Source: Candidatus Saccharimonadota bacterium | Lineage (GTDB): Bacteria > Patescibacteriota > Gracilibacteria > UBA4473 | Direction of reading: 5' to 3' | NCBI GenBank assembly: GCA_020632335.1 | Contig: JACKFV010000001.1 | Span: forward strand, 300,001 to 332,000 | DNA length: 32,000 nt | Part shown: positions 3,020 to 31,975 of the stretch, in pieces | How the letters are laid out: every line of letters begins with the position of its first letter | How positions within the stretch are numbered: position 1 is the first letter of the stretch | Program-made: the position numbers and the translations under genes | The notes under the pieces: model-generated | Told to the model about the DNA's origin: nothing | Seen by the model: the letters and a program-made list of their open reading frames with translations, nothing else | Databases searched by the model: none

Positions 3020-4462
3020 GTGATGATTCTGCATACTTCTCGCATGAAGCACGCCTGGCAGTGGATCGTTCTCGTGGTGGGGCTCCTCGGTATAGCCGGG
3101 GGCATCTGGTGGCAGAGAAGCCCCGCGCCGCTGCCGTATGTATCCCAGTACCCGGAGGACGTGACGCTCTACCGGGCTACGCTGAGCGACACGCCCCACC
3201 CGCTTATAGACTCCCTGATGGCACTGTGGCAGAAGGGGGCAGAGCCAGGGCCCGTCACCGCTAGCCGTGGGGGGACGCTCCTCCCGCCTGCCAGTGCTCC
3301 GCTGGAGTCCTCCCTGGCGGATAACCTCGATTTTGCCGCGCTCCGTCCGAGGAGAGGGCACCTCCCCGATGCGCTGCTGTATCTGATGGGAGGAGAATTC
3401 TCCCGCGCTCTGCAGGTGAGTGATAGCTTTCTCAGCGCCTTTGTGCCGGCAATAGCGCCGTATTCTCCGCAGATGCTGCAGCTGTGGGAGGATGAGGCGC
3501 AGCTCACGGTGCGGTATGAGGGGCTGGACGAGCGAGAGAAACCCACCCCACGGGGGACAACGCTGGGGCAGTACATACCCGCAGACGCGGTGTATGCCTT
3601 CCTGGGGGAGGACCTGCAGGGCAGCTATGACCGGACGTTACAGCAGCTCCAGGCCACCGACCCCGCTCTGGCAGAGACGCTTACGGGCGTGATCCGGGCG
3701 GTGACGGCGCAGTACTTTGGTGAGGATTTCTCGCTCAAGCGGGACTTTCTCAGCGCTACCACCGGCCCATATGCGGTCATGCTCACACTGGATCCCGTTA
3801 GCCGTAGCCCCATCTGGACCCTCCTCACCGGCTACACCGGCACCACGGAGAGCCTCACTGCCCCCCTGGAGCAGCTGCAAGCGGTACTCTACCCCGCGGT
3901 GCGCACGGTGGAACTGCCCGACGGTGACACACGGCAAGAGCTCTACGCTGAGCCCGTGGAACGCCTCACGCAGGCGATGTATGCGGACGTGCCCTATACC
4001 ATCGTGCAGGGTAGCGAGGCTCGGGTCTCCTTGGCGTTTAGCCTCCAGGACAACCTCCTCATCCTCAGCAGCCGCACTGAGGGCCTGCACCGGGTGCTAG
4101 ACGCTGCAGCTGAAGAGGCTTCTCGGCTCACCAGCGTAGCGCTAGAGCGTACCCAGCAGGGCTACCTCCAGCTAGATGGCGCTGCGGAGCTCTCCCACCA
4201 TCTCTTTGGGCAGGAATCGCTCCCCCTGGCGCTCCAGTGGCTGCTCACGCATGGTGAGTCGCTCCAGTGGACGACTGATGGCTCCGTGACGACTCTCACC
4301 ATGCCGCGGCGCACAGCCCCCTTGCCAGAGATAGCAGAGGCTACAGACACTACAAAAGCCGCGCCAAACACCCCCCCGGTTGCGCCTACGGAGGAAAATA
4401 CTCCTGAAAATATGCTGGGAGAGGACACAAGCCCTGCGCCCACTACAGCAGCGGGAAAATAG
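3020..4462 (+). CDS. hypothetical N-terminally membrane-anchored protein with a Pro/Thr-rich C-terminal tail
   Basis: 480-aa ORF with backbone-like GC. It has one N-terminal TM (WQWIVLVVGLLGIAGGIWW) and a low-complexity tail (TDTTKAAPNTPPVAPTEENTPENMLGEDTSPAPTTAAGK). I recognised no family motif. Alternative starts are ATG 3023 and ATG 3044. Confidence 0.55.
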   Translation: MMILHTSRMKHAWQWIVLVVGLLGIAGGIWWQRSPAPLPYVSQYPEDVTLYRATLSDTPHPLIDSLMALWQKGAEPGPVTASRGGTLLPPASAPLESSLADNLDFAALRPRRGHLPDALLYLMGGEFSRALQVSDSFLSAFVPAIAPYSPQMLQLWEDEAQLTVRYEGLDEREKPTPRGTTLGQYIPADAVYAFLGEDLQGSYDRTLQQLQATDPALAETLTGVIRAVTAQYFGEDFSLKRDFLSATTGPYAVMLTLDPVSRSPIWTLLTGYTGTTESLTAPLEQLQAVLYPAVRTVELPDGDTRQELYAEPVERLTQAMYADVPYTIVQGSEARVSLAFSLQDNLLILSSRTEGLHRVLDAAAEEASRLTSVALERTQQGYLQLDGAAELSHHLFGQESLPLALQWLLTHGESLQWTTDGSVTTLTMPRRTAPLPEIAEATDTTKAAPNTPPVAPTEENTPENMLGEDTSPAPTTAAGK

Positions 4463-5155: not shown

Positions 5156-6229
5156 GTGATGGTTATCCATACCCAGCACCAGCCCGAGAAACCAACAGAA
5201 GTGCTCAATAGCAGCACCAGCGCAGAGGGCGAGAAGCTCGATAGCCTGCTGCGCCCGCAGGAGTTTAGAGACTTTGTGGGGCAGAAGGCCGTGGTAGAGA
5301 ACCTGCTGGTCTTCTGCCAGGCGGCAGTGGAGCGGGGTGATCCTCTGGACCACACGCTGCTCTATGGCCCGCCAGGACTGGGCAAAACCACCCTCGCGAT
5401 GATCCTCTCGGCGCAGATGAAGACCGCGCTGCGACAGACTTCTGGCCCTGCGCTGGAGAAACCGGGTGACATCGCGAGTATCCTCACCAACCTGCAGGAG
5501 GGAGATATTCTCTTCATTGATGAGATCCACCGCCTGCGCCGCCCCGTGGAGGAAATCCTCTACACCGCTATGGAGGACTGGGCCATTGACCTCATCGTCG
5601 GGAAGGGCCCCAGTGCCCGTACCATGCGCCTCTCGGTGCCGCGGTTTACGCTCATCGGCGCTACTACCAAGGCCAGTATGCTCGCCAGCCCCCTCCGGGA
5701 TCGCTTCGGGCATATCGAGAAACTGCGCTACTACGACGCTGAGGAGATACAGCAAATCCTCACCCGTAGCGCTGGCATACTTGAGGTCCCCCTCACGCAA
5801 AGTGGCGCGGAGCTGCTGGCCGCCTCTAGCCGTCGTACGCCGCGCATCGCCAACCGTCTACTGCGCCGTATGCGGGATTTTGCCACCGTGTTGCACTCGG
5901 GAGAAATCACCAGGAGCGTGGTGGAGGACAGCCTCCAGAAGCTGCATATAGACACCCTGGGCCTGGACTACGCTGACCAGCAGTACCTGCGCGCGCTCTG
6001 TGAGCAGTTTGCCGGCGGGCCGGTGGGGCTGAGCACTCTGGCGGCGGCCATCGGTGAAGACGAGAGCACCGTGGAGGATATGATAGAGCCCTACCTCATC
6101 CGCGAGGGACTGCTGCAGAAGACCGCCCGCGGCCGCATGGCTACCCCCAGTGCCTTCACGCACCTGGGGCTCCCACCGCTACACACTGCGGGCACGCCGC
6201 AGGCCGACCAGCCCAGCCTGCTGGACTAG
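5156..6229 (+). CDS. ruvB: Holliday junction branch-migration helicase RuvB
   Basis: LRPQEFRDFVGQ at the N-terminus. Walker A is YGPPGLGKTTLA and Walker B is ILFIDEIHRL. RTPRIANRLLRRMRDFA is also present. The 357-aa length is typical. GTG at 5156 is immediately followed by ATG at 5159. Confidence 0.92.
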   Translation: MMVIHTQHQPEKPTEVLNSSTSAEGEKLDSLLRPQEFRDFVGQKAVVENLLVFCQAAVERGDPLDHTLLYGPPGLGKTTLAMILSAQMKTALRQTSGPALEKPGDIASILTNLQEGDILFIDEIHRLRRPVEEILYTAMEDWAIDLIVGKGPSARTMRLSVPRFTLIGATTKASMLASPLRDRFGHIEKLRYYDAEEIQQILTRSAGILEVPLTQSGAELLAASSRRTPRIANRLLRRMRDFATVLHSGEITRSVVEDSLQKLHIDTLGLDYADQQYLRALCEQFAGGPVGLSTLAAAIGEDESTVEDMIEPYLIREGLLQKTARGRMATPSAFTHLGLPPLHTAGTPQADQPSLLD

Positions 6230-7539
6230 CACGCCTCCTCACAGAAGAGCGCAGCGATCTCCTCTAGCGGGAGCGTGAGCTGCGTGCCGGTGCGCAGGTC
6301 CTTCAGCGTATAGAGCCCTGCCGCCAGTTCGTCCTCCCCCAGCACGATGGCATGGCTATAGCCCTGCGCGTTAGCGTAGTCCAGCGCCTTGGGGAGTTTG
6401 GCGTTCTTCAGCCACGGGGTCACGGTGATGCCCGCACGGGTGAGGGGCCCTATAGCCTCCAGCATCTTGGCTGTTTCAGCCTCTCCCAGAGGGATGAGCA
6501 GCACTCGCACCGGCCCCAGCAGCCGCTCGGGGATGATAACCCCCTCCTCCAAGCACTGCAGCAGCAACCGCGTCACGCCTATGCTCCCCCCCACGCCCGG
6601 CAGGTGCTTGCCACTGAAGGTCTCTCCCAGGTCATCATAGCGCCCTCCACCGCCGATGCTGCCCTTTATCTGCGGGTGCAGCGCCTCGGCCTCCCATACC
6701 GTACCGGTGTAGTAGTCCAACCCGCGCGCAATGCCCAGGTGCACCTGCACGTCTGTGCCCATCTCCAGCCCCAGCTGCTCCAGCGCTGCGCACACCGCCC
6801 GGAACTCCGGATGGGTGATAGTGCTTCTCTCCTCCAGCGGCTGCGACGCCAGCATGAGGATCTCCTCCGCCGCCGCAGCAGTGCAACCGCACTCCTGCAG
6901 CTGGGTGAGAGAGACCGTGCGGGGCACTTTCTCTAGGGTATCTACCACGCTCCTCGCACGGAGCAGCGCTGCCTCAGCCACCCCATGCGCACGCAGCACG
7001 TCGCTCAGCACTCGCCGGTCGTTGATGAGAATACGAAACCCCCCAAAGTCCGTCACCTCCTGCAGTGCCCGCAACGCCTCATACATAGTGAAGATGCAGT
7101 AGGCGTCCCACAGCGGACTCAGCGACCCACTGCCGATGACGTCTATATCCGCCTGGGTGAACTGCCGGTAACGCCCCTTCTGTGCCCGTTCGCCCCGGAA
7201 TACCGGCCCGATGGCGGCTCGGAGGAAGGGGAATTTCATATGCTGTTGCTGCCGCGCAATATACAGCGCCAGCGGCACGGTGTGGTCAAACCGCAGCGCC
7301 ATGCCGTTGTGGGTCTCGTCATCGTCCTCGGCTAGTACCCGCCGCAGCCCATAGATCTCCTTATCATCACCGCCCTTGGCCCGCAGGTTCTCCTCTCGCT
7401 CTACCACCGGGGTAGAGAGCGACGCAAAGCCATACTGGGCATAAACTCGCTCTAGCGTCCGCAGCCAGAGCTGGTGCACACGCTCCTCAGCCGGGGTAAA
7501 CTCGGGGAAGCCGCTGGGGGGGAGTATATTGGGTTTCAT
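6226..7539 (-). CDS. hisS: histidyl-tRNA synthetase
   Basis: Class II HisRS motifs are present: RYRQFTQADIDVIG, GLDYYTGTVWEA and GGGRYDDL. A C-terminal anticodon-binding-like region follows (VLLIPLGE...). The ATG overlaps the stop of the upstream gene (ATGA at 7536-7539). Confidence 0.88.
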   Translation of the reverse strand: MKPNILPPSGFPEFTPAEERVHQLWLRTLERVYAQYGFASLSTPVVEREENLRAKGGDDKEIYGLRRVLAEDDDETHNGMALRFDHTVPLALYIARQQQHMKFPFLRAAIGPVFRGERAQKGRYRQFTQADIDVIGSGSLSPLWDAYCIFTMYEALRALQEVTDFGGFRILINDRRVLSDVLRAHGVAEAALLRARSVVDTLEKVPRTVSLTQLQECGCTAAAAEEILMLASQPLEERSTITHPEFRAVCAALEQLGLEMGTDVQVHLGIARGLDYYTGTVWEAEALHPQIKGSIGGGGRYDDLGETFSGKHLPGVGGSIGVTRLLLQCLEEGVIIPERLLGPVRVLLIPLGEAETAKMLEAIGPLTRAGITVTPWLKNAKLPKALDYANAQGYSHAIVLGEDELAAGLYTLKDLRTGTQLTLPLEEIAALFCEEAC

Positions 7540-8273
7540 GCTGTAGGAGGTTGGAGGCGATATTCTACCCGGGTCACGGCCTGCTGGAATGCCTGGCGCA
7601 TCTCCACCGCGTAGGGGTTATAGGTCATCATATCGTGGAAGAGTTGCCAGCTGTCGTTCTGCACATGAGCAAAGGTCTCACAGAGTTTGCGGAATCCTGG
7701 GGTGTCTACGCGCGTCAGGTGCACCTGCAGCTCCTCCGCCAGGCGCCCCACGTAGTGTGTCAGCCCCAGGCTCCATGCAATGGCGCGGTCGTGCTCCTCG
7801 CAGGTCATGGGTTCTACCACCACCTGCATGCGCTGCCAGAACTGCTCATAGGCTGTGGCTACCACGGCTGGCGCGCTGATATTCTCTATCATGATCCGCT
7901 GGCCAAACATCTGTGTGCCGCCCACCGTCCCATCAGGACCAAAGAGCGGGTGGCTCATGAGCAGGGGTTGCCCAGCCGGTAGCGCCTGCTGTGCCCACTG
8001 CAGTGGGAGCATCTTCACACTGGCGATGTCGATGAGGGTCGTCTCGGGGCTGAGCACTGGCGCCAAAGCCTCATAGAGCGGTAGCAGCTGCGATATCGGC
8101 ACGCAGGGCAGGCAGATATCTGCGCCGTCTAGCACCGCAGCGTAGCTCTGGTGGGTGCTGACTGCCGGTAACTGCGAGTCATACACCCTCACCGTAGCCG
8201 CCGGCCAGTAGCGCTGCAGTAGCTGGTACAGCAGCCCCCCCATTCTTCCATGGCCGAGGAGCGCTATTTGCAT
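7536..8273 (-). CDS. prephenate/arogenate dehydrogenase family protein (TyrA-like)
   Basis: N-terminal Rossmann motif IALLGHGRMGG. The segment EEHDRAIAWSLGLTHYVGR resembles the PDH active-site region (HD...SH.PH). The 245-aa ORF overlaps ileS by 10 nt and hisS by 4 nt. Confidence 0.5.
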   Translation of the reverse strand: MQIALLGHGRMGGLLYQLLQRYWPAATVRVYDSQLPAVSTHQSYAAVLDGADICLPCVPISQLLPLYEALAPVLSPETTLIDIASVKMLPLQWAQQALPAGQPLLMSHPLFGPDGTVGGTQMFGQRIMIENISAPAVVATAYEQFWQRMQVVVEPMTCEEHDRAIAWSLGLTHYVGRLAEELQVHLTRVDTPGFRKLCETFAHVQNDSWQLFHDMMTYNPYAVEMRQAFQQAVTRVEYRLQPPTA

Positions 8274-11200
8274 ACTTTTGTCAGGCTAATGCTGAGGCTA
8301 TTGCCGTCTATCTCTAGCAGGTGTTGGCCCGTGCCGGTTGTCCAGCTGCTGGCCAGCACCTCGCTCATAATGCGCTCCTGGTGCTCGCTCAGTACCTCTT
8401 CGAGCACAGGGCTCTCTGTAGCTATGGTGACGTGCACGTGGTCTTCTACGGCAAATCCCTCGCTCTTGCGCAGCTCCTGCACGGCACGAGTGATCTCCCT
8501 GGCCAGCCCCGCACGGTGCAATGCCGGGGTTATCTGGGTATCCAGCACCACCACTATCCCCCTGGAGGAGTCGGCGTCGTAGCCCTCGTTGCACACATAT
8601 TGCACGAGGAACTCCTCTGGCGCCAGTGTGTGCCCCCCCACTACCGCCGTGCCATCTGGCTGCAGCGTATACTGCCCTGCCTTCCCCTGCTGGATCACCT
8701 CCTGCACTGCCCGGCCGAGCCGAGGGCCCACTTTCTTCGCGTCCACAGCGATGATCTGCCGGGCCTTCCCCGCAATATCTCGCACCAGTACTACCTCTTC
8801 TACATTGCATTCGTCGGCCAGTATGGCGGTATCGACCGTCATCCCTTCGGGCAATAGCACCTCCATACGGGCAATCGGCTGCCGCAGTCGTACCCCCGCG
8901 CGTGACCGCACCGCCCCCGCCAGACGCACGATTTCTCGCATTGTGGCCGTGGTAGCCGAGAGCTCCGGCGCGTCATACTGCGGCTGGGGGAGCGGCCAGT
9001 ACTGCCAGTGCACTGACCCCTCCCCCCCCAGGCGCTGCCAGAGGTCCTCGGCGAGGAAGGGCATCACCGGAGCGATCAGCTTGCTCACCGTACGCAGTAC
9101 ATGGTCCAGCGTCTGGTAGCCACTGCGCTTGGCGTCCGTCATGCCACTGGCCCAGAACCGCCGCCGGCTGCGGCGTATGTACCAGTTATTCAGCTGATCG
9201 ATGAAGCCCGAGAGGGCGTTGTAGGCGTGGTCGATCTCATAGCGGTCCAGCCGAGTGGTGAGGTGCCGCGTGAGCTGCTGCAGCTCGCTGAGAATCCAGC
9301 GGTCTAGGTCTGTGGCTGGCTCTGGGAGGAGATACCTCTCCTGGACTTCCGCATTGTGCAGGTGTGGGTAGCGCTGCCGCAGGCCATCCTCCTGCCACTC
9401 CCAGCGCTCTTGTATCCCCCCTATCACCGCATGGCAGGCCACCACCACCCGCTGCCCGGGGTGCTTGGCGGCCGTCTGCACCATCCACTGCTGCACTCGC
9501 TCCCGTACGTCTTCATAGGGTTCTAAGCTCTCGCGTACTCCTGGGGCATGCCGCGGCTGCCGGTTGCCCGTGGGGGTGTAGCGCTCCCGTAGTCGTAGGT
9601 CCGTCTGTATCTCCCCCGTGTAGCCCGTGCCGGATTGCAGTATCTCTGCGGTCTGCACCGTGCGCAGCAGTGGCGAGGCATAGAGCGCGTCTATAGGCCC
9701 CAGTTTGGCAGCCGTAGCAGCTACTTGTTCCCGTCCCTTAGGGGTCAGCGGGTCGTCATTCTCCACCTCTACACTCCAGTAGTCGCGTACATTGCTGTCA
9801 GCCTCCCCGTGCCGCACAAAGAGAAACTGCGTCGGTGCCCAGCCGTCTATGCTGGCGTAGGTCTGGAGGAAACTATACGCCGAGCGCAGCGGCAGCACGA
9901 TGCTCTTCAGCACCTCCTCACAGCCCCTATCGGTAAACGCCGCGTCCTCCCCCCGCACCACCGGCTTGGTCATCATGCTGAAGCGTACCGCGTCTGCTCC
10001 GTACTGCGCAAAGGCCGTCATGGGGTCTTTGTAGTTCTTCTTGCGCTTACTGAGTTTCTTGCCGCCCTCCGCCAGCAGCAGCCCGCTGCACACCGCGTGG
10101 GAGAAAATACTCTCCCCCCACAGCGCCACGCCCAGCACGTGCAGGCTGTAGAACCACGTCCGGGTCTGCTCTATGGCCTCCGCAATGAAGTCTGCCTTGC
10201 GGTAGGTGTCGGTCTCATAGGGGTAGCCCAGGCTGGCATAGGGCATAGACCCGCTCTCAAACCAGCAGTCCAGTACCTCGGGTATGCGCCGCATGGTGCC
10301 GCCCTGCTCGCCCGTCCAGGTCAGGGAGTCGATGGATTCTCGGTGGAGGTCATCTACCGTCTGCCCACTCTTTGCCTCCAGCTCTGCTATCGAGCCGATG
10401 ATCTGCGTTTCGCCCGTTTCCTCACACCGCCACACCGGCATGGGCGTCCCCCAGTAGCGGTTGCGGCTGATGGCCCAGTCTGGCGCGCTGGCAAGGCCAT
10501 TGCCGAATCGCCCGTGCTTCACATGCTCGGGTACCCAGGTGATGGACTCGGCCGCGCGGATCATGGCGGGCTTCAGCTGCTGGACGTCCACAAACCAGGT
10601 CTTGATGGCCCGGTACATGAGCGCGCAGTCAGTGCGGTAGCAGTGCGGGTAGCTGTGGCGTATCTGCTCTCGCCGGTAGAGCTGCCCCCCCGCTTGCAGC
10701 GTAGCCATTACCCAGCGGTTGGCGTTGGCCTCTTTGCTGCCCTCCACCACGGGGTCATCGCGGAAGTATATCCCCTCCAGCGCGGGTATCTCGGCCGTAA
10801 AGTAGCCACTCATGTCTATAGGGTCCACGCCATACACCCCCTGCTCGCGGCAGAGCTCGGCGTCCTCCGCCCCATACGCCGGCGCAAAGTGAACAATCCC
10901 CGTGCCCTGACTGGTCGTTACATAGTCTCCGGCATCATGCAGACATACAAAGGCACGACCATCACTTTTGCTACCAGGCAGCAACTGCAATCCGCTGGCA
11001 AAGTCAAAGAGCGGCGTGTACCCCATACCAGAGAAGTCCCGCCCCAGCTGGGTGCGTTCCACGCGGTAGTCACCCTCAGTGAAGTAGCGAGCTACAGCGT
11101 CTGTTGCCAGCCAGTAGCTCTTGCCATGGTAGTGCACCAGGCTGTACTCCGTATCTCGTCCAAAGCCAAGCGCTCGGTTAGCCGGGAGCGTCCAGGGGGT

Positions 11201-11872
11201 GGTCGTCCAGGCCAGGGCGATGGTGCCATCCTCTAGCAAAAACTCTACTGTGACCGCAGGGTCGTCTATGTCGGCATAGCCTTCATTGGCCTCAAAGTTA
11301 CTCAGCGGACTGCCCAGCTTGGGACTATAGGGGATCACCTTCGTCCCCTCATAGATGTGGCCGCGCTCATAGAGGGTCTGGAACACCCACCATACGCTCT
11401 GCATGTAGCTGGGGTACAGGGTTTTGTAGTCGTTCTGGAAGTCAATCCAGCGGCCCATGCGCTCCACCACGGGCTCCCACGCGGCCTCGCAGCCGTCTAT
11501 TTTAGCCCGGCACAGGCGGTTAAATGCCGGGATGCCAATGCGCTCGATGTCTGGTTTACCAGCCAAACCATGGTCTTTTTGTACCTCAAACTCCACTGGG
11601 ACACCGTGGCAGTCCCACCCGAATCGTCGCTCCACCCGGTAGCCCTGCATAGTCTTGTACCGCGGGATGAGGTCTTTCGTCGTCCCCTGCAGGAGGTGCC
11701 CGTAGTGAGGCGTCCCCGTGGCGAATGGTGGCCCGTCGAGGAAGACAAAAGGGTGACGCGCAGAGCGACTCTCTACGCTGTGGTGGAAGGCATTGAGCCG
11801 CTCCCAGAGCTGCAAGATGCGCTCCTCCTCTGCAGCGATGGAGACCGAGTTGTCATAGGGCCTGAGGCGCAT
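8264..11872 (-). CDS. ileS: isoleucyl-tRNA synthetase (type 2-like) with an inserted histidine-phosphatase domain
   Basis: HIGH motif is PHYGH (residues 55-59). The CP1 editing block is WTTTPWTLPAN. The KMSKS equivalent is KLSKRKKNY (residues 606-614). The anticodon-domain start is DLDRWILSELQQL, followed by NWYIRRSRRRFW. At 1202 aa it is about 150-170 aa longer than the type-2 IleRS I recall. Confidence 0.92.
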   Translation of the reverse strand: MRLRPYDNSVSIAAEEERILQLWERLNAFHHSVESRSARHPFVFLDGPPFATGTPHYGHLLQGTTKDLIPRYKTMQGYRVERRFGWDCHGVPVEFEVQKDHGLAGKPDIERIGIPAFNRLCRAKIDGCEAAWEPVVERMGRWIDFQNDYKTLYPSYMQSVWWVFQTLYERGHIYEGTKVIPYSPKLGSPLSNFEANEGYADIDDPAVTVEFLLEDGTIALAWTTTPWTLPANRALGFGRDTEYSLVHYHGKSYWLATDAVARYFTEGDYRVERTQLGRDFSGMGYTPLFDFASGLQLLPGSKSDGRAFVCLHDAGDYVTTSQGTGIVHFAPAYGAEDAELCREQGVYGVDPIDMSGYFTAEIPALEGIYFRDDPVVEGSKEANANRWVMATLQAGGQLYRREQIRHSYPHCYRTDCALMYRAIKTWFVDVQQLKPAMIRAAESITWVPEHVKHGRFGNGLASAPDWAISRNRYWGTPMPVWRCEETGETQIIGSIAELEAKSGQTVDDLHRESIDSLTWTGEQGGTMRRIPEVLDCWFESGSMPYASLGYPYETDTYRKADFIAEAIEQTRTWFYSLHVLGVALWGESIFSHAVCSGLLLAEGGKKLSKRKKNYKDPMTAFAQYGADAVRFSMMTKPVVRGEDAAFTDRGCEEVLKSIVLPLRSAYSFLQTYASIDGWAPTQFLFVRHGEADSNVRDYWSVEVENDDPLTPKGREQVAATAAKLGPIDALYASPLLRTVQTAEILQSGTGYTGEIQTDLRLRERYTPTGNRQPRHAPGVRESLEPYEDVRERVQQWMVQTAAKHPGQRVVVACHAVIGGIQERWEWQEDGLRQRYPHLHNAEVQERYLLPEPATDLDRWILSELQQLTRHLTTRLDRYEIDHAYNALSGFIDQLNNWYIRRSRRRFWASGMTDAKRSGYQTLDHVLRTVSKLIAPVMPFLAEDLWQRLGGEGSVHWQYWPLPQPQYDAPELSATTATMREIVRLAGAVRSRAGVRLRQPIARMEVLLPEGMTVDTAILADECNVEEVVLVRDIAGKARQIIAVDAKKVGPRLGRAVQEVIQQGKAGQYTLQPDGTAVVGGHTLAPEEFLVQYVCNEGYDADSSRGIVVVLDTQITPALHRAGLAREITRAVQELRKSEGFAVEDHVHVTIATESPVLEEVLSEHQERIMSEVLASSWTTGTGQHLLEIDGNSLSISLTKVCK
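9311..9838 (-). other. histidine-phosphatase (PGAM/His_Phos_1-like) domain inserted in ileS (residues about 679-854)
   Basis: FLFVRHGEADSN, with RHGE encoded at 9803-9814 as CGG CAC GGG GAG. Also LTPKGREQVAA, ASPLLRTVQTAEIL and RVVVACHAVIGG. These are the four conserved blocks of the RHG phosphatase fold in the right order. The segment is in-frame with no stops. Confidence 0.7.
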
Positions 11873-11976
11873 TAGAATGCTATTACCCCGCTACTGTAAA
11901 GACCCATGCAAAAGACGCAAGCCTACGACTCTCTCCAGAACGCTGGTGGCATCACTTCTCCTCTCCTCCGTCTCTG

Positions 11977-13184: not shown

Positions 13185-13270
13185 GCTCGGGTGGTGGAAC
13201 CGGTAGACACGAGAGACTTAAAATCTCTTGGCCTAGCGCCGTGCGGGTTCGAGTCCCGCCCCGAGCACCA
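13185..13270 (+). tRNA. tRNA-Leu (anticodon UAA), class II long variable arm, CCA encoded
   Basis: Hand-folded. Acceptor GCTCGGG/CCCGAGC. D stem GTG/CAC. Anticodon stem AGAGA/TCTCT with loop CTTAAAA. Variable arm is 14 nt. T arm GCGGG-TTCGAGT-CCCGC. Discriminator A plus CCA. Total 86 nt. Confidence 0.9.
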
Positions 13271-20033: not shown

Positions 20034-21074
20034 TTAAGATGACTGGAGAAGGGTCAGTGCGTCTTGCACCTCGGCAAAGCTCGCGCCCGTCAGCACCTGC
20101 TGCGCTACCCCCCCAGCCCGAAAGAACACGAGTGTATCCTGCACCTTCACGTCATACTCGGCCCGCAGGTTAACGTCGGTGTCATAATTCGCCCGCAGCA
20201 GCGTCACCCCACGGGGAAGCTCACTCAGGCGGTCAGTGAAGGTCTGGTCATGCTGGATGCAACTCGGGCACCACGCCGCGTAGAAGAAGATTGCAAAAGG
20301 CTCATTACTCGCTACCGCGGTGTCAAAGGCCTGCTCGGTATAGGGGAGATACAGCGCCTCTGGCTTCTCCTCAGCGGTGACTTTTTTCGTTATTTCTCCC
20401 CCGGCTATGCTCTCATAGGTCTTGCTCGGCAGTGCCTCTGCGCCCGTAGCGTGCCGGTGCTGACGGTAGAGCAGCTCAGCCAAGAGCCCCCGCGTCACCG
20501 GCTGGTCAAAGGTCATGATGTCCTCTGGCAGCGCATGTTGCACCGCCAGCTCGTCTATGTATACCCGGTACCACGGCGTCGAGGCAGCAAAGGACGGCAG
20601 CGTTCCCTTCGTGATGATTTTCGCTACCTCCGCCACGTTAATCGTCCGCTCGGGGTAGAAATTCCCGTCATCATAGCCCCGGGCCAGCCCCTCACGCATC
20701 AGCACGCAAATATACGGGGCAAACCACATCTCGCTCGGCACGTCATGCAGGGTATAGACATCCGTCGCGCAGGTCATTATTTTCTCCTCCGGGTAGGTGG
20801 CTGCAACGTACATCTTGGCAAATTCCGCGCGGTTCACGGTGCGCTCGGGCTGGTATGTCCCATCACCATAGCCCTGCACAATGCCCGCCTGACGCACATA
20901 GTCTACCGCCGCCGCGTGGGGGTGGCTCTCTGGTACGTCCGGGAAGGGATCTGCGGGGGGAGTGGGAACCGAGACAGTGCTCGCCGCGGTGCTGAAGTCC
21001 AGAGTAAAGACCGCCCCGAATGCGCCTGCAAGCACCACAGCGGGGAGGAGAAATCGTCGGAGAAGAGAAGACAT
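20034..21074 (-). CDS. secreted SLH-domain protein with a C-terminal thioredoxin-fold domain (WCPSC)
   Basis: Signal peptide is LLRRFLLPAVVLAGAFGAVF. SLH repeats include FPDVPESHPHAAAVDYVRQAGIVQGYGDGTYQPERTVNRAEFAKM and LHDVPSEMWFAPYICVLMREGLARGYDDGNFYPERTINVAEVAKI. The C-terminus FAIFFYAAWCPSCIQHDQTF carries the thioredoxin CxxC active site. Confidence 0.75.
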   Translation of the reverse strand: MSSLLRRFLLPAVVLAGAFGAVFTLDFSTAASTVSVPTPPADPFPDVPESHPHAAAVDYVRQAGIVQGYGDGTYQPERTVNRAEFAKMYVAATYPEEKIMTCATDVYTLHDVPSEMWFAPYICVLMREGLARGYDDGNFYPERTINVAEVAKIITKGTLPSFAASTPWYRVYIDELAVQHALPEDIMTFDQPVTRGLLAELLYRQHRHATGAEALPSKTYESIAGGEITKKVTAEEKPEALYLPYTEQAFDTAVASNEPFAIFFYAAWCPSCIQHDQTFTDRLSELPRGVTLLRANYDTDVNLRAEYDVKVQDTLVFFRAGGVAQQVLTGASFAEVQDALTLLQSS

Positions 21075-21790: not shown

Positions 21791-21876
21791 GCTACGGTGG
21801 CGGAATTGGTAGACGCGCACGTTTCAGGGACGTGTATCCCCCGGATGTGAGAGTTCGAGTCTCTCCCGTAGCACCA
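21791..21876 (+). tRNA. tRNA-Leu (anticodon CAG), class II, CCA encoded
   Basis: Acceptor GCTACGG/CCGTAGC. D arm GCG-GAATTGGTAGA-CGC. Anticodon stem CACGT/ACGTG with loop TTCAGGG. Variable arm is 14 nt. T arm GAGAG-TTCGAGT-CTCTC. Ends in ACCA. Total 86 nt. Confidence 0.92.
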
Positions 21877-25640: not shown

Positions 25641-25721
25641 GGGGCTACTCTACACGGTATTTCGCGGTTGTGAAGGGGGCAGCAGTTGTGCTATAGTGGA
25701 GAGATTGCTATCGTTCTCTCC

Positions 25722-27515
25722 ATGCCCCTTACCCCTGAGCCGCGTACGTGGGAGGAGAGATTCAACGATTTTTTCTCGTGGATAGCGGTGATGCCCCTCA
25801 GTAGTGATGAGAAAGAGGCTACCAGTAAGAAGATCATTGCAGACGTACAGACGGGCACCCTGTACTGGAGTGAGCTGAGCCTGAGCGTGCTCATCGCTAC
25901 CTTTGGGCTGCTGCAAAACAGCGTAGCGGTCATCATCGGGGCTATGCTCATCGCGCCCCTGCTGCGGCCGATCTATGCGGTGGCCTTCAGCATGAGTACG
26001 GGCCACATGCGTTTCTTTCGCGAGGCGTTCTTGCTGCTCTTTAACAGCATGGTACTGGCGATTTTCCTCAGTGCGGTGGCGGCCTATATCATCCCGCTGA
26101 AGGTAGAAACCAGCGAGATTCTCAGCCGCACTACCCCGAATCTGCTGGATTTCTTTGTGGCGATTACCTCGGCTGTCATTGCGTTTATGTCGCTCAAGTT
26201 CCGCCACCTGGCTGATAGCGTCGCGGGGGTGGCCATTGCGGCCGCGCTGGTGCCGCCGCTGGGAGTGGTAGGGATAGAGCTCTCGCTGGGCGATTACACC
26301 GCGGCATGGGGGGCGCTGCTGCTCTTTCTTACCAACATTGTGAGTATCGTCATCGTGGGGGTGGTGCTCTTCTATATGTTCGGGTTTTCTCCTCACCAGG
26401 GCAAACAACAGCGCAGTGCCGTGCGCAGCGTGGTGGTGCTCTGCACGGTGGTGGGGATGCTCTGTGTGCCCCTGGCCACCAGCCTGATGCAGATATCCCA
26501 TAAGGTACGTTTGCAGGCCGAGGCCAAGCAATTGCTGAGCCAAACACTCTTCCAGTACGCGCCGGAGGCGTCGCTCTCTAGCCTGCAGGTCAGCGGTCTG
26601 ACGGCCCACAGCGCGGTGCTCACGGGTACGGTGAAACTGCCCGAATCTACCCAGCTCTACCGCGAGACGCAGGAACAGATCACCAAGACCATGGCGTCGC
26701 TGCTGGAGCGGGATATAGACCTCCAGCTGGAGGTGCTGCGTACCGCGAGTATTGTCTCGGCGGAGCAGCAGCCCACTACCGAAGACCGCCTCCATAGCCT
26801 CACGCACGCGCAGCTCCGGGAGCAGATGCCGGGCGCAACCATCTTCACCATAGAGCCCGAGCAGCTCTCAGCGGGGTCCTATGGCGTCAAGGTGGCCTTT
26901 ACTCCGGCGCTGGGGGAGCCCTTCACGGGGCAGCTCCAGCAGCAGATAGAGCAGGCTATAGACCAGCAATTCCCCGAGCAAGAGGTGATCTTCTTCTGGG
27001 TGGAACTCCCGCAGCAGCAGCCCCAGACCCTCCCTAATGAGGAAGAACGGCTGCGACGGTCGCTCCTGCTGGGGTGGGAGATCTTCCTCAAGGACACCCT
27101 GCCCGAGGGCGCCAGCGTGCAGCAGACCGCTCTGCAGTGGACCGCCACCACCGAGATGGCCCTGCCGGTGGAGTATGTGCTGTGTGAGCCCTACCCCGAG
27201 TACCGGCTCTGTACACCGGGGATGCCGGACCCCGAGCATGCCTATGACCCCCAGTACACCGTGGTAAAGCCCATCACCCTAAAGGAGCGCCTCATGAGCC
27301 GCCACTACACCGCCGAGGTCTGGCTGCCCAGCGGAAGCAGTACGGAGGGGATCCGCCAGGCGCTGCGAGACTTTGAGGCTCAGCAGGGCCACAATACTAC
27401 CGCAACACTGCAGCTCTTCTCCTACCAGACGGTGTCTAGCCCCACAGATGCACCGCTCCCAGCGTCACCCCAGCCACCAGCAGCGCCGCCCCTGCCAGCC
27501 CCGCCGCAAGGATGA
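25722..27515 (+). CDS. DUF389-family integral membrane protein with a long soluble C-terminal extension
   Basis: The N-terminal ~270 aa are multi-TM, with IIGAMLIAPLLRPIYAVAF and AAALVPPLGVVGIEL, which is the DUF389 pattern. About 330 further residues have no motif I recognise and end in the Pro-rich PLPASPQPPAAPPLPAPPQG. The first ATG is at 25722; the track ORF starts at TTG 25686. Confidence 0.65.
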   Translation: MPLTPEPRTWEERFNDFFSWIAVMPLSSDEKEATSKKIIADVQTGTLYWSELSLSVLIATFGLLQNSVAVIIGAMLIAPLLRPIYAVAFSMSTGHMRFFREAFLLLFNSMVLAIFLSAVAAYIIPLKVETSEILSRTTPNLLDFFVAITSAVIAFMSLKFRHLADSVAGVAIAAALVPPLGVVGIELSLGDYTAAWGALLLFLTNIVSIVIVGVVLFYMFGFSPHQGKQQRSAVRSVVVLCTVVGMLCVPLATSLMQISHKVRLQAEAKQLLSQTLFQYAPEASLSSLQVSGLTAHSAVLTGTVKLPESTQLYRETQEQITKTMASLLERDIDLQLEVLRTASIVSAEQQPTTEDRLHSLTHAQLREQMPGATIFTIEPEQLSAGSYGVKVAFTPALGEPFTGQLQQQIEQAIDQQFPEQEVIFFWVELPQQQPQTLPNEEERLRRSLLLGWEIFLKDTLPEGASVQQTALQWTATTEMALPVEYVLCEPYPEYRLCTPGMPDPEHAYDPQYTVVKPITLKERLMSRHYTAEVWLPSGSSTEGIRQALRDFEAQQGHNTTATLQLFSYQTVSSPTDAPLPASPQPPAAPPLPAPPQG

Positions 27516-28057: not shown

Positions 28058-31000
28058 CTAGCGGCTACAACTGGCCACCGGCAGTCCCGCCTCACGGAGG
28101 ATCCAGCCCTCTGACGTCGGCTCATACTGCACCCCAGGCGCTTGCCATACGGGGGTAGGGCGAGCGTCCAGCACTGCCAGTGGTGTCTCCTCCCGCAGCA
28201 ATGCGCTGTAGTCTGTGCTGTCTTGCGTGAAGGGAGAGAGAGTCAGCGCGTCCTCTGTGAGGGTGAGCGTGCAGGCGTCTGCGGCCGTCATGGCAGCCAT
28301 AGGGGCCTCTGTGGTGGGGGTATTCCCGCTATCTCCGGCACACTCGGGGGCATCATCTGCGCAGCCACGGAGCGTCCAGAAGCCGTCCTGGTCTGTCGGT
28401 ATCGCCGCGATGATCTCTCGCACACCGTCACGATCGCGCTCTATATAGACGGTTTTGCCGGCTACCTGGGGGTCGATCTTCCCGCGTAGGCGCCGCTCCC
28501 GCACTGAGGCGTCCAGCAGCTGCACCACGGGGGGCTTCACGCTGAACTCCAGCAGCAGGCTGCTGCGCATACCATCGTCGTCTTCTACCGTCACTCGCAC
28601 CACAAAGTTACTCGTAAACTGCTCCTCCAGGGTGTAGCTCAGCAGCTGCTTGACCTCGGTTATCTCGGCCATATCAGCCTCAAGGGGGTAGTCGATGATG
28701 CCATCGTCAAAGATGTCATACCACACGCCGGTTATCTGCCCGTCGTCACTGGAGGCCTGGAGGTCTATGGTAATGGGTCGTGTGGGGTCCACCAGGCGCT
28801 GCTGCCCCCCAGCCACCAGGAGCTCTGGCGGGGTGTGCTGGCGCACGGGCGTCTGCAGCATGACCGGGCTGAGGGCACTGGGGGTGAAGTCCCGACCCCG
28901 CTGGTAGAGCGCATAGACCGTGCCCCAGAGGTCTTTCCGCACCATTTCTCGGCGGAAGTCCAGCACGTGGTCCTCTAGCTGGAAGCGACTGAGCGAGTAC
29001 TGCGTATGCGGGTAGAGCATGATGGGCAGCCCGCGGAGGGTCTGGGAGAGCAGCAGTGTGGGGCCATCAGCGTCGATCTCTATCCAGCTGCCGGAGGCAA
29101 AGTAGAGCGTCTCCTTTAGCGGTGCGGCCACAATGGGCGCGTTGGGGCGGTAGTGGCTGAGCAGCCCGTCCTCCACGCAGAGCTTGCCGTGGGGTATCTG
29201 CATTTCCTCCCCCCGGTGGAGCGTGAAGGACCGTATCTCTATACGCTCGGTGGGGGTGACGGCCTCACGGGGCAGGGGGTTGCGTACGGTGAAGCGGGTG
29301 GTGTCCGCCTCGCCCACCAGCACGGCGTCCGTCGCGGCCAGGTAGAGCGCATTGTCGGCGTCGGCCGCGTTGCAGTCCTCGTAGAGTGCGTGATCATAAG
29401 GCGGCACGGCGGTATGCTCGGGCGCGAAGATCCGCACGCTGCTGAGTGAAGCCGTGTCTTCTGGGAGGCCATCCAGCTGCAGTGCCAGTGGCCTCGGGGT
29501 GTAGTAGTCCATCGGCAGTACCTCGATGAAGCCATGGCGGTACCAGTCGGTGAAGGAGCGTCCGCTGTAGGGGGCTTCCAGCTGCGCGCGGGTGTCGATG
29601 CGGTCGCTCACGTTCCACTCGTAGTAAGGGATAGCCGTGCGAAGTGTGTCGTAACGGGTGATCTGCACGCCGGCGGTACTGCCGTCCTCTATTGGCTCGA
29701 TACGCTCGGCGATGGGCCCAAGGCTATGGAAGTCCTCCCACGAGAGGGGCACCACCGGCCCCGAGGCTCCTGGAATACTACGCGGTTTGCGGTACTCCAG
29801 GTACACACGGTTGCCCTGGCTATAGAGGATTTCCTTGGTGCCGTCGCCATCTATATCCGCAAACTGGTAGCGGTAGCGGCCGGTGGGGGTTTGCTCGCTC
29901 AGGCGCTGCACGGCGTTCTCCGTCCAGTAGATACCGGTAGGAATGGGCACGGTGGACTCGCTGCCCACGGCCTCCGTATAGATGGCGGTGCTGGCCGTCC
30001 AGGTCTCGGGGGCGTAGCGGGTATTCTCGGTGACGTAGTTGGCGTCTGGGTCACCCTCCAGCACGAGGTCTTGCAGTGTCTGCCGCACCAAAGCCGTCAC
30101 CACGGTGGGGTCCAGGGGGGGCTCGGGAGCGTCGTGCAGTGGGAGGCGCGGCGTGTAGGGGTCGCCATTCAGGCCCGCTATACCAGTAGTCCGGAAGGTA
30201 AGACGGTATCCCGGCACGGCCGTAGCGGTAGGCACGGTGAAGTCTGGGAGCTCATTCTCACAGGCATCGGTGAGGGGGTCACCGTTCTCCGCCGCGTGGA
30301 TCTCAGCCATGTTACAGCGCATGTCGGTCTGCAGCTGGCGGGTCTGCTCGGTCAGGCCTTCCAGCCCCTGCAAGCTCTGCCCGTCCACCTCTATGACCTC
30401 GGTATCGTGGGGTTTCTCCACCACCGGCGCTGAGGACTGGTCACGCGGCAGGCGCTGGGTGCGGTTGAACCGCAGCTGGTTGGCCCCCGTCAGCGCGGCC
30501 TCTTGCGGGGGCAGCACGTTCTTCTTGAGGAGATTGATAACCTTCAGCAGTACCTTCACGGTACTCAGCACAGTGCGCAGTTGCTGCTTAACCTGCGGGA
30601 TGTCCGGCGCAACGCCTATTTCTGGCAAGGACGCGATGGGGAAGGAGAAGGTCTCGGGCACGGTGATGGCCAGATACTTTGGCTCTGGGAGGAGCGTCAT
30701 GGGCTGGAAGGGCGGTACGGGTGCGGTAGCTGGCAGCTGCGCGGGGGTATAGGGCTGCTGCAACTCCTCGGGGGTATCCAGCGTGGACTCGTAGGCGCTC
30801 ATGCCGAGGGACGCATCGGGGAGGGTAAAGTCGCTCAGCTGGGGGATAACCGGGATAGAACTCTGCTGCGGCAGCAGCTGCATCTGCGGCAGGGGGAGGT
30901 TCTGCGAAGCGCTGACGCCGCTAAACGACACCGAGAGGTCGGTGAAGTCCGGGAGGCTGATGTCGGGGAACTGGACGTTCTTCAACACCATTTTGGTCAG

Positions 31001-31975
31001 CAGCTGGATGATCTGCCCGCGCTCCATATTCCCGGTATGGAACTGCTCGCTCATACCGTCGAACATGCTGAAGATATCGGCGTACTGGCTCACCACCTGC
31101 TGGAAGGCCCCGGTGGCCTCCTCGTGCTCGGTCAGGCGCTGGCGCTGCGCGTTGCCCCAGTCGTTCAGCGTGCCCTGCAGCGCCTCCAGGCCCTCGGTGA
31201 TCTTCTCGGGCACGGTGGAGAGCTGCTGCTGCACGGTGAGCAGCTGCTGCTTCTGCGCGTCATAGCCCTGCAGGCGGCTGTCTTGCTGGCTCAGCTCATC
31301 GCGGCGCTCGGCGGTCTTCTCGAGGAAGTCCTGGGTCTGGTTCTCTATGGTGGTGGCGCGCGTCTCATACTCGGCCGCAAAGGCAGGGTCAGCGTAGGGT
31401 TTTTGCTTATAAATGGCAATTTCGTCCCGCCACTGGCGCTTGAACCGCTCTAGCTCTTGCCGGTGCTGCGGCTCCCAGCTATCCAGCGCCTGCAGGTAGT
31501 CCTCGCGCTGGTGGTCCCATTCCTCCAGCGTGGCGGGGCTGAAGACGGGATAGGGCACCTGCACGGGCTCCTCGGCGGTATTGGCCAGGGGGTGGTCATT
31601 CAGGTTGCTCAGCTCGTCCTGGCTCTCTTGCCGACTACTGCTGGGGCTAAGGCCCTCTACCACCGGCAGCGTAGCCTTGACATCTGGCACGTTGACCGCG
31701 CTGAGGTCCCGCCCAGACTCGCCCATGAAGTCGGTCAGCGGGTCGCTCTGCTTCTGCCGCGCGCCCAGGTGTACGTCTCCCGCGCCGCTCTTGCTGAGGA
31801 AATCATTACTGCTGAGCGCGTCGGCCAGTGGGATGTCGACGCTCGGGGGGCAGAGCCCTGGCAGCTGCACCTGCAGCCCCATATACAGGCACTGGGGCTT
31901 GATCATCAGCGGCTCTAGCGCTCCATAGTTCATCAGGCAGGCGGCCATACCTACATTCCCCGAGCTAGTAGGCAT
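28058..31975 (-). CDS. giant (at least 1305 aa) probable extracellular or surface protein; the 5' end may lie outside the window
   Basis: Single uninterrupted ORF. It contains a Q/E/R-rich coiled-coil-like stretch (about 31075-31525), the FG-GAP/VCBS-like motif FADIDGDGTKEILY (29822-29863), and a PKD-like segment (about 28530-28760). That segment reads GVWYDIFDDGIIDY...VVRVTVEDDDGMRS. There is no signal peptide at the first Met. The frame stays open for the 8 codons upstream to position 31999. Confidence 0.6.
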   Translation of the reverse strand: MPTSSGNVGMAACLMNYGALEPLMIKPQCLYMGLQVQLPGLCPPSVDIPLADALSSNDFLSKSGAGDVHLGARQKQSDPLTDFMGESGRDLSAVNVPDVKATLPVVEGLSPSSSRQESQDELSNLNDHPLANTAEEPVQVPYPVFSPATLEEWDHQREDYLQALDSWEPQHRQELERFKRQWRDEIAIYKQKPYADPAFAAEYETRATTIENQTQDFLEKTAERRDELSQQDSRLQGYDAQKQQLLTVQQQLSTVPEKITEGLEALQGTLNDWGNAQRQRLTEHEEATGAFQQVVSQYADIFSMFDGMSEQFHTGNMERGQIIQLLTKMVLKNVQFPDISLPDFTDLSVSFSGVSASQNLPLPQMQLLPQQSSIPVIPQLSDFTLPDASLGMSAYESTLDTPEELQQPYTPAQLPATAPVPPFQPMTLLPEPKYLAITVPETFSFPIASLPEIGVAPDIPQVKQQLRTVLSTVKVLLKVINLLKKNVLPPQEAALTGANQLRFNRTQRLPRDQSSAPVVEKPHDTEVIEVDGQSLQGLEGLTEQTRQLQTDMRCNMAEIHAAENGDPLTDACENELPDFTVPTATAVPGYRLTFRTTGIAGLNGDPYTPRLPLHDAPEPPLDPTVVTALVRQTLQDLVLEGDPDANYVTENTRYAPETWTASTAIYTEAVGSESTVPIPTGIYWTENAVQRLSEQTPTGRYRYQFADIDGDGTKEILYSQGNRVYLEYRKPRSIPGASGPVVPLSWEDFHSLGPIAERIEPIEDGSTAGVQITRYDTLRTAIPYYEWNVSDRIDTRAQLEAPYSGRSFTDWYRHGFIEVLPMDYYTPRPLALQLDGLPEDTASLSSVRIFAPEHTAVPPYDHALYEDCNAADADNALYLAATDAVLVGEADTTRFTVRNPLPREAVTPTERIEIRSFTLHRGEEMQIPHGKLCVEDGLLSHYRPNAPIVAAPLKETLYFASGSWIEIDADGPTLLLSQTLRGLPIMLYPHTQYSLSRFQLEDHVLDFRREMVRKDLWGTVYALYQRGRDFTPSALSPVMLQTPVRQHTPPELLVAGGQQRLVDPTRPITIDLQASSDDGQITGVWYDIFDDGIIDYPLEADMAEITEVKQLLSYTLEEQFTSNFVVRVTVEDDDGMRSSLLLEFSVKPPVVQLLDASVRERRLRGKIDPQVAGKTVYIERDRDGVREIIAAIPTDQDGFWTLRGCADDAPECAGDSGNTPTTEAPMAAMTAADACTLTLTEDALTLSPFTQDSTDYSALLREETPLAVLDARPTPVWQAPGVQYEPTSEGWILREAGLPVASCSR

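Follow-up and report, generated by a model that had tools for sequence, protein, structure and literature searches.

Aminoacyl-tRNA synthetases (aaRSs) gain extra domains with functions beyond charging (PMC9643514). In eukaryotic aaRSs such additions, for example the GST-like, WHEP and EMAPII domains and the UNE-I domain of IARS1, mostly sit at a terminus and mediate interactions without being catalytic. A nested catalytic accessory domain has a curated precedent in the isoleucyl-tRNA synthetases (IleRSs) of the NCBIfam family NF040702, 'ileS_w_GNAT', and a CobC/PhoE-like histidine phosphatase (HP) is carried on a nucleic-acid-acting enzyme in the bifunctional RNase H/acid phosphatase of the M. 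tuberculosis Rv2228c type (NF005567). Here we analyse a window of 32,000 nucleotides from contig JACKFV010000001.1, in which the gene ileS encodes an IleRS with a complete HP domain nested inside it. In contrast to the eukaryotic accessory domains, this HP is internal, apparently catalytic and found in a reduced-genome bacterium. The window protein also differs from ileS_w_GNAT, having no GNAT Pfam hit and scoring 281.6 bits against a cut-off of 1999. The Rv2228c type is a terminal fusion with another partner, and its model matches the window HP weakly (E 1.7e-11; 44 bits against a cut-off of 326 bits). An aaRS with an accessory domain and an HP fused to another enzyme are kinds of protein already known; what appears to be undescribed is a phosphatase in an aaRS.

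The HP domain occupies amino acids (aa) 679-854 of the ileS product (window 9311..9838, minus strand), as defined by a profile match, a domain model and homologs with an insert at the same site. The Pfam profile His_Phos_1 (PF00300) matches aa 684-817 with an E value of 4.6e-21 and 75.8 bits against a gathering cut-off of 21.7, and the match spans profile positions 2-151 of 194. It lies between tRNA-synt_1 and Anticodon_1, exactly the order expected by the original prediction, which was made from the sequence alone and had proposed an HP fold of about 175 residues between the IleRS blocks. The insert contains FLFVRHGEADSN at aa 683-694, the RHGE of which corresponds to window positions 9803-9814, followed by LTPKGREQVAA at aa 709-719, ASPLLRTVQTAEIL at aa 732-745 and RVVVACHAVIGG at aa 808-819. 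No stop codons or frame changes occur in it, and its composition (GC 0.634, GC3 0.71) is like that of the remaining ileS (GC 0.618, GC3 0.774), as had also been claimed. Modelled by itself with AF2, the insert gives a PhoE/CobC-like fold with a predicted local distance difference test score (pLDDT) of 89.7 that is weak only at about aa 816-835; inside the full-length model the HP core has a pLDDT of 88-96. The insert is a genuine, complete branch-1 HP domain, in-frame within a real IleRS. The surface loop that holds it follows the final helix of the catalytic/stem-contact part and precedes the first of the anticodon-binding helices, which is the hinge position that had been proposed for it.

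The closest described relatives of the domain itself are PhoE/YhfR of Geobacillus (Bacillus) stearothermophilus (1h2e, 1ebb), the alpha-ribazole phosphatase CobC and GpgP (Rv2419c) of M. tuberculosis, which have the same branch-1 fold and share its catalytic set of RHG, Asn, second Arg, Glu and distal His. In a Foldseek search with the domain-only model PhoE 1h2e was the top match (TM 0.73, E 9.7e-12), followed by GpgP, TIGAR and CobC; there were 300 PDB matches at E<=0.001, and all those listed belong to the histidine-phosphatase superfamily. These top matches suggest that the window HP resembles the small phosphatase-type members of the superfamily, not the mutases. PhoE, which is likewise small and phosphatase-type, is also a best PDB sequence match. 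In contrast to the window HP, which is nested in an aaRS, PhoE, CobC and GpgP are free-standing proteins of about 200 aa; they are 23-24% identical to it in structural alignment and have an E-x-x-(F/L)-G-x-W-E-G loop and a C-terminal tail that it lacks. None of the specific HP equivalogs of NCBIfam is reached: the window HP scores 53.1 bits against a cut-off of 225 for dPGM_arch, 40 against 162.9 for CobC, 25.4 against 261 for GpmB, 30.9 against 350 for PspA and 17.9 against 74.5 for SixA.

The gene of the synthetase that carries the HP (8264..11872, minus strand, as are all features of the protein given below) was identified by its open reading frame (ORF), the ileS equivalog TIGR00392 and a fold match. 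Its 1202-aa product is identical to GenBank MCB9809640.1, whose title says no more than "isoleucine--tRNA ligase [Candidatus Peribacteria bacterium]"; the class Peribacteria belongs to the candidate phylum Peregrinibacteriota. The N-terminal part, aa 1-678 (9839..11872), comprises the Rossmann catalytic domain, the CP1 editing domain, the KMSKS loop and a long helix running to ...TYASIDGW. It includes a tRNA-synt_1 match at aa 19-640 (E 5.9e-123), and a helix is modelled at about aa 648-676, ahead of the insert. Its HIGH-type signature is PHYGH at aa 55-59 (11696..11710), with H56 and H59 invariant in our alignment A1 (H54 and H57 in the numbering of that alignment, which begins at protein residue 3). 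The CP1 motif WTTTPWTLPAN lies at aa 222-232 (11177..11209), and its columns W/T/T/P/W/T/L are invariant in the same alignment. The KMSKS-type loop reads KLSKR at aa 606-610 (10043..10057), within KLSKRKKNY at aa 606-614, where the family consensus is KMSKS. SIDGW closes this part at aa 678 and DLDRWILSEL opens the next at aa 855, resuming with the anticodon-binding helical domain at aa 857-1000 (8873..9304; Anticodon_1, E 1.1e-31), in which NWYIRRSRRRFW is found at aa 896-907. The C-terminal tRNA-binding domain typical of type-2 IleRS, DUF5915 (PF19302), follows at aa 1016-1199 (8276..8827; Pfam, E 9.3e-26). Every motif quoted in the original prediction was found where it had been placed.

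TIGR00392 matches the window protein with 797 bits against a cut-off of 621.4, in two stretches with the insert between them. The full-length AlphaFold model (pLDDT 88.2, pTM 0.85) is closest in the PDB to Priestia megaterium IleRS2 (8c8v, E 2.3e-93) and then to yeast IleRS (8wnd), which confirms a type-2 synthetase. These two type-2, eukaryote-like, mupirocin-resistant enzymes have the same scaffold, including DUF5915, with a target-normalised TM of 0.85. The window protein is not one of the mupirocin-resistance synthetases MupA and MupB, whose models require 1900 bits and give it 595 and 575. By its equivalog score, its HIGH, KMSKS and CP1 motifs and its DUF5915 domain it is a type-2 IleRS, and from the intact motifs we infer that it is functional and would aminoacylate tRNA(Ile). 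There is no second ileS within the 32-kb window.

The architecture is not confined to this protein. Homologs from the sequence searches (P0066-P0329) were mapped onto the N part, HP and C part of the window protein. Most of the 120 best IleRS homologs of the full-length search match PF00300 as well, and in 88 of them the local mapping recovered a complete HP, single or repeated. The HP is nested at four surface loops of IleRS, with up to three copies per protein. On the window ileS product these sites correspond to about aa 499-508 (A1), about aa 519-526 (A2), about aa 552-559 (B) and 678/855 (C, the site of the window HP). Among the 120 best homologs, C alone is the most frequent arrangement (49), followed by A1 alone (12), B+C (11) and A2 alone (6); rarer ones are A2+C and A1+C (3 each) and A2+B+C and B alone (2 each). 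The named carriers are Candidatus Gracilibacteria, Peregrinibacteria or Peribacteria. The HP-containing IleRS is a lineage-wide, vertically inherited trait of Gracilibacteria, Peregrinibacteria and Peribacteria, with dozens of database entries. Within this sizeable family the window protein is a divergent member. It fits the clade of IleRSs with an HP nested at site C, as defined in this analysis.

A word-index search with the insert and short flanks had given the impression of a unique fusion, as it returned only free-standing phosphatases of about 200 aa and missed the window protein itself. The full-length search and an exhaustive HMMER search overturned this impression, which had come from a lack of sensitivity. 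A scan of metagenome contigs with the insert yielded a single distant free-standing HP (L003, 30% identity). The original prediction knew of no described aaRS with an embedded RHG phosphatase and called for the spread of the insertion to be examined. We likewise found no description of a phosphatase-bearing aaRS in the open-access full-text literature, including a 2026 preprint on IleRS domain evolution, but the case is not singular and the insertion is widespread. There is no curated NCBIfam model for the architecture. Some entries carry automatic JGI annotations as fusions, one of which reads 'isoleucyl-tRNA synthetase/phosphohistidine phosphatase SixA/...GNAT'. The architecture is thus present in databases, where automatic pipelines have partly recognised it, and appears to be undescribed in the literature.

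Several related arrangements were seen during the survey. Valyl-tRNA synthetases (ValRSs) also carry nested HPs, one each in P0241, P0243 and P0211 and four in a row in P0197, so that the window HP is one instance of a wider tendency of this lineage to nest HPs in IleRS and ValRS. The closer relatives of the nested HPs include many free-standing proteins of 400-460 aa that are made up of a tandem pair of HPs (P0193, P0195, P0199, P0200, P0325 and similar). Other nested domains were examined in P0075, P0149, P0162, P0073, P0130 and P0127. GNAT acetyltransferases are nested in the same IleRS loops of some members, and many relatives have both GNAT and HP. Others have AAA_33/zeta-like P-loop kinases, which in P0149 and P0162 sit at site C instead of an HP; P0073 has a Ser_hydrolase, and P0127, without any HP, a HAD phosphatase. 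In some IleRS homologs the CP1 region holds a DUF559 or an IS200-type Y1 transposase domain. The IleRSs of this group stand out as a scaffold for insertions.

At site C the length of the segment between the IleRS blocks is bimodal in the mapped homologs: 73 of them have 7-49 aa there, and a second group of 78 has 147-259 aa, with most near 181 aa. The short class agrees with the short linker that the original prediction had stated for canonical type-2 IleRSs, and stands where the window protein has an enzyme domain of 176 aa. Our comparator without an insert, the sole relative found in a genome-contig scan, is an IleRS from a metagenome-assembled genome (L002) that is 46% identical to the window protein and has about 20 residues between ...FFTTYAEADAI and EIDRWILS. 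The junctions at site C follow the pattern ...(I/V)D(G/N)W-x-P-T before the HP and ...P-x-x-x-x-LD-x-W after it, and those of the window protein read IDGW-A-P-T and P-E-P-A-T-D-LD-R-W. The common junction residues W-x-P-T and P...LD-x-W suggest that the window HP derives from the same insertion event as the other site-C copies.

A chimeric contig, in which assembly had joined ileS to a phosphatase gene, or an annotation artefact would produce the same appearance. No evidence supporting this was found, and its probability is practically nil. A separately assembled Logan contig (SRR12358675, 5065 bp) crosses both HP junctions, encodes an identical protein and is 99.9% identical to the window; the architecture and junction residues are common to 78 homologs from many samples and sources; and the frame is continuous with both IleRS halves intact. 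Chimeric assembly is excluded, and the junctions at about 9311 and 9838, which the original prediction had flagged for checking, are real. The Logan contig differs from the window at five positions, one synonymous change in ileS codon 25 and four intergenic substitutions at 11924-11952. The latter crowd into 29 bp of the 104-bp divergent intergenic region between ileS and UDG. No direct or inverted repeats flanking the HP junctions were found, so there is no footprint of a recent mobile insertion.

The catalytic residues expected of an HP are all present in the window copy and in the expected order. The RHG motif is R687-H688-G689 (9806..9814), with H688 as the expected phospho-accepting nucleophile; among the 78 site-C copies R and H are each conserved in 76 and G in 72, and at sites A1 and B both R and H are 100% conserved. 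The phosphate-pocket Asn of RHGxxxxN is N694 (9791..9793) and the second catalytic Arg is R737, in SPLLRTVQTA (9662..9664), each conserved in 76/78 site-C copies. E763 (9584..9586), the expected general acid, is conserved in 76-77/78 of these and in 169/171 free-standing HPs, while H814 (9431..9433), the distal catalytic His, is His in 77/78 and has Ala after it where Gly is usual. Overall, R687, H688, N694, S733, R737, T741, E763, E784, R792 and H814 are at least 95% conserved at site C (G689 92%), and the catalytic set is essentially invariant at A1 and B and slightly more variable at A2. As the mean identity among site-C copies is only about 44%, this conservation suggests selection on catalysis. 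The window HP retains the whole catalytic and phosphate-binding set at only about 32% identity to other copies, and its R737, E763 and H814 align to columns that are at least 95% conserved across the 78 nested and 171 free-standing HPs.

Some features of the window copy weigh against an active enzyme. The E-x-x-F-G-x-L-E-G...R loop motif, otherwise 85-96% conserved, is missing and ERYTPTGNRQPRHAP stands in its place; in the divergent loop at aa 764-783 (RYTPTGNRQPRHAPGVRES; 9524..9583) the family pattern x-x-F-G-x-L-E-G...R is unrecognisable. The loop reads E-R-Y-T-P-T-G-N-R where E-x-x-(F/L)-G-x-(W/L)-E-G would be expected, a loop that is common in the superfamily and not defining, and the alignment there is uncertain. 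The Gly column of the loop (G767) is Gly in 75/78 site-C and 163/171 free-standing copies and Pro in the window. At further positions where 74-96% of site-C copies agree the window deviates (H693S, Y699W, G701V, H707D, F766T, G767P, L769G, E770N, G771R, R777P), and it has H-A for H-G after the distal His. Model confidence is low at aa 763-782 and 813-832 in the full-length context. Against the hidden Markov model (HMM) of the site-C family the window HP scores 175 bits, compared with about 210-280 for most other copies. Finally, a conserved catalytic core is no proof of activity.

These losses, which include several family-conserved His, Tyr and Gly residues besides the loop, are what would be expected of a pseudo-enzyme, that is, if the substrate pocket had been lost in this Peribacteria lineage and the domain now acted as an allosteric module, as a spacer or as a surface for binding tRNA or protein. 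We consider this quite unlikely, because near-invariant catalytic and phosphate-binding residues have all been kept at 32% identity and because the HP has diverged in proportion to the IleRS core. The HP-to-core identity ratio of the window protein is 0.63 and the family median 0.66, which suggests that the window HP decays no faster than the rest of the protein and rules out a disproportionately degenerate HP. The residue after the distal His is Gly in about 86% and Ala in 5-12% of HPs, so H-A is met with in ordinary members of the superfamily. The divergent loop, with a pLDDT of about 54 in the full-length model, reaches 88-92 in the domain-only model. An apparent 3-aa insertion after H814 was rejected, since the HMM alignment shows H-A plus a one-residue gap instead. 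Of the grounds on which the original prediction claimed catalytic competence, the intact Arg-His, second Arg and distal His are confirmed, and E763 can be added to them; with the family-conserved loop and other residues missing, the window HP is best described as a putatively competent enzyme.

The HP copies group by insertion site, and their nearest neighbours are overwhelmingly same-site copies in other proteins. Copies at different sites are only 27-39% identical even within one protein, about as distant as free-standing HPs are. This suggests that the insertions are old and vertically inherited and are not recent duplications. In a tree of IleRS cores a long branch unites the window protein with P0069 (B+C) and P0073 (C). 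The adjoining branch, also inside the site-C clade, holds P0127, with its HAD domain and no HP, and P0079, which has 1035 aa and a 12-aa linker instead of an insert. P0124 falls in the site-C clade yet has no HP at site C. The tree is a simple neighbour-joining one without support values. Within the site-C clade the HP appears to have been lost cleanly a few times, which suggests that an IleRS can function without it.

The possibility that the insert is a neutral relic also has to be considered. The loops of IleRS and ValRS may simply tolerate or attract in-frame foreign domains, perhaps borne by mobile elements, and the HP may have no selected function. The presence of GNAT, AAA_33/zeta-like kinase, Ser_hydrolase and HAD domains in the same loops, and of DUF559 and IS200-type Y1 transposase domains in CP1, fits a merely insertion-tolerant scaffold too, and must be counted against a selected role. 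However, at each of the sites 95-100% conservation of the catalytic residues has persisted through deep divergence, the length of the site-C insert is tightly held at about 181 aa, and the copies are old and site-specific; the junctions without flanking repeats and the gene-like GC of the insert point the same way. We therefore regard a neutral relic as very unlikely.

In our view the HP is probably an active accessory phosphomonoesterase, tethered to the synthetase and kept by selection. The explanation as a whole, namely that a selected, active phosphomonoesterase domain entered a type-2 IleRS by an old insertion and acts on a target linked to charging, is one that we favour with moderate confidence. 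By the chemistry established for the superfamily, a phospho-histidine would arise when H688 attacks the phosphate of the substrate; R687, N694, R737 and H814 would bind that phosphate, and E763, as general acid, would supply a proton to the leaving group. The HP would take no part in the aminoacylation chemistry itself. In other class I aaRSs the serine of the KMSKS loop is phosphorylated, and the enzyme thereby inactivated, by kinase toxins of the HipA type. We speculate that the tethered HP most likely strips a phosphate that would block or mis-regulate charging, and that its target may be the KMSKS-loop serine of the IleRS itself, a phosphorylated tRNA end, a phosphorylated small-molecule ligand or inhibitor, or AMP. 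Service to an unrelated metabolic pathway seems less likely than such a charging-linked role. The substrates put forward in the original prediction (Ap4A, alarmones or a tRNA terminal phosphate) are conjectural, and our results favour none of them over the others.

A tie between the activity of the HP and the synthetase is suggested by its occurrence at four loops and in multiple copies, by the ValRS cases and by the non-homologous HAD phosphatase in an IleRS without HP. The same variety of positions makes one fixed geometry in cis relative to the active site or tRNA unlikely, and to that extent counts against the explanation we favour. The HP could alternatively be a passenger, a broad-specificity PhoE-like metabolic phosphatase that, in a small genome of the candidate phyla radiation, is merely co-expressed with IleRS and has no mechanistic link to charging. 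Its closest non-fused relatives are free-standing PhoE- or phosphoglycerate-mutase-like proteins of about 200 aa with 30-42% identity, its top fold matches are small-molecule phosphatases, and loss of the HP leaves the IleRS in place, all of which would fit a passenger. Yet a terminal fusion would be the simpler way to co-express two enzymes, and the HP is internal at four loops with up to three copies per IleRS and up to four in ValRS; a non-homologous HAD phosphatase nested in the same scaffold of an HP-less IleRS is likewise hard to reconcile with co-expression alone. A passenger is thus unlikely, if not negligibly so, and like the pseudo-enzyme and the neutral relic it is weakened by the evidence at hand.

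A broader reading, which we offer as speculation and think rather improbable, is that the IleRSs and ValRSs of Gracilibacteria, Peregrinibacteria and Peribacteria may be modular platforms with their own nested modifying enzymes near KMSKS. These enzymes, that is, HP or HAD phosphatases, P-loop kinases, GNAT acetyltransferases and a serine hydrolase, would act in cis on the synthetase, for example at a KMSKS-loop serine phosphorylated as by the HipA-type toxins, on the tRNA end or on bound inhibitors. The whole would form a self-contained charging switch or immunity device, of which the window HP would be the phosphate-removing arm.

In the window, ileS seems to be the first gene of an operon whose members overlap (the others at 6226-8273, minus strand). 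The overlap of a prephenate-dehydrogenase-like gene (7536-8273) is 10 nt with the ileS stop and 4 nt with the gene for histidyl-tRNA synthetase (6226-7539); the latter enzyme is of ordinary length (437 aa) and has no extra domain. An Rfam scan of the window found no leader or riboswitch near ileS, and at the gathering threshold it reported only a tRNA. This is the first of two tRNA-Leu genes identified by ARAGORN on the plus strand, at 13185-13270 and 21791-21876, with anticodons UAA and CAG. A protein of 346 aa (20034-21074, minus strand) has both S-layer homology (SLH) repeats and a thioredoxin domain and may be a thioredoxin anchored at the cell surface. No Pfam match at E<=0.001 was obtained for three large ORFs, at 28058-31975 (minus strand, 1305 aa), 25650-26807 (minus strand, 385 aa) and 3020-4462 (plus strand, 480 aa).

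Public annotation conceals the nested phosphatase behind plain 'isoleucine--tRNA ligase'. Protein engineers can find in this family naturally occurring sites at which class Ia synthetases accept insertions. The aaRSs are among the most conserved and best-studied enzymes, and an intact phosphatase nested in one of them across a class-level lineage implies an unrecognised function coupled to charging, possibly in repair or unblocking, in regulation or in the detoxification of inhibitors. The hosts are reduced-genome, host-dependent bacteria of the candidate phyla radiation, in which each retained domain is likely to matter.

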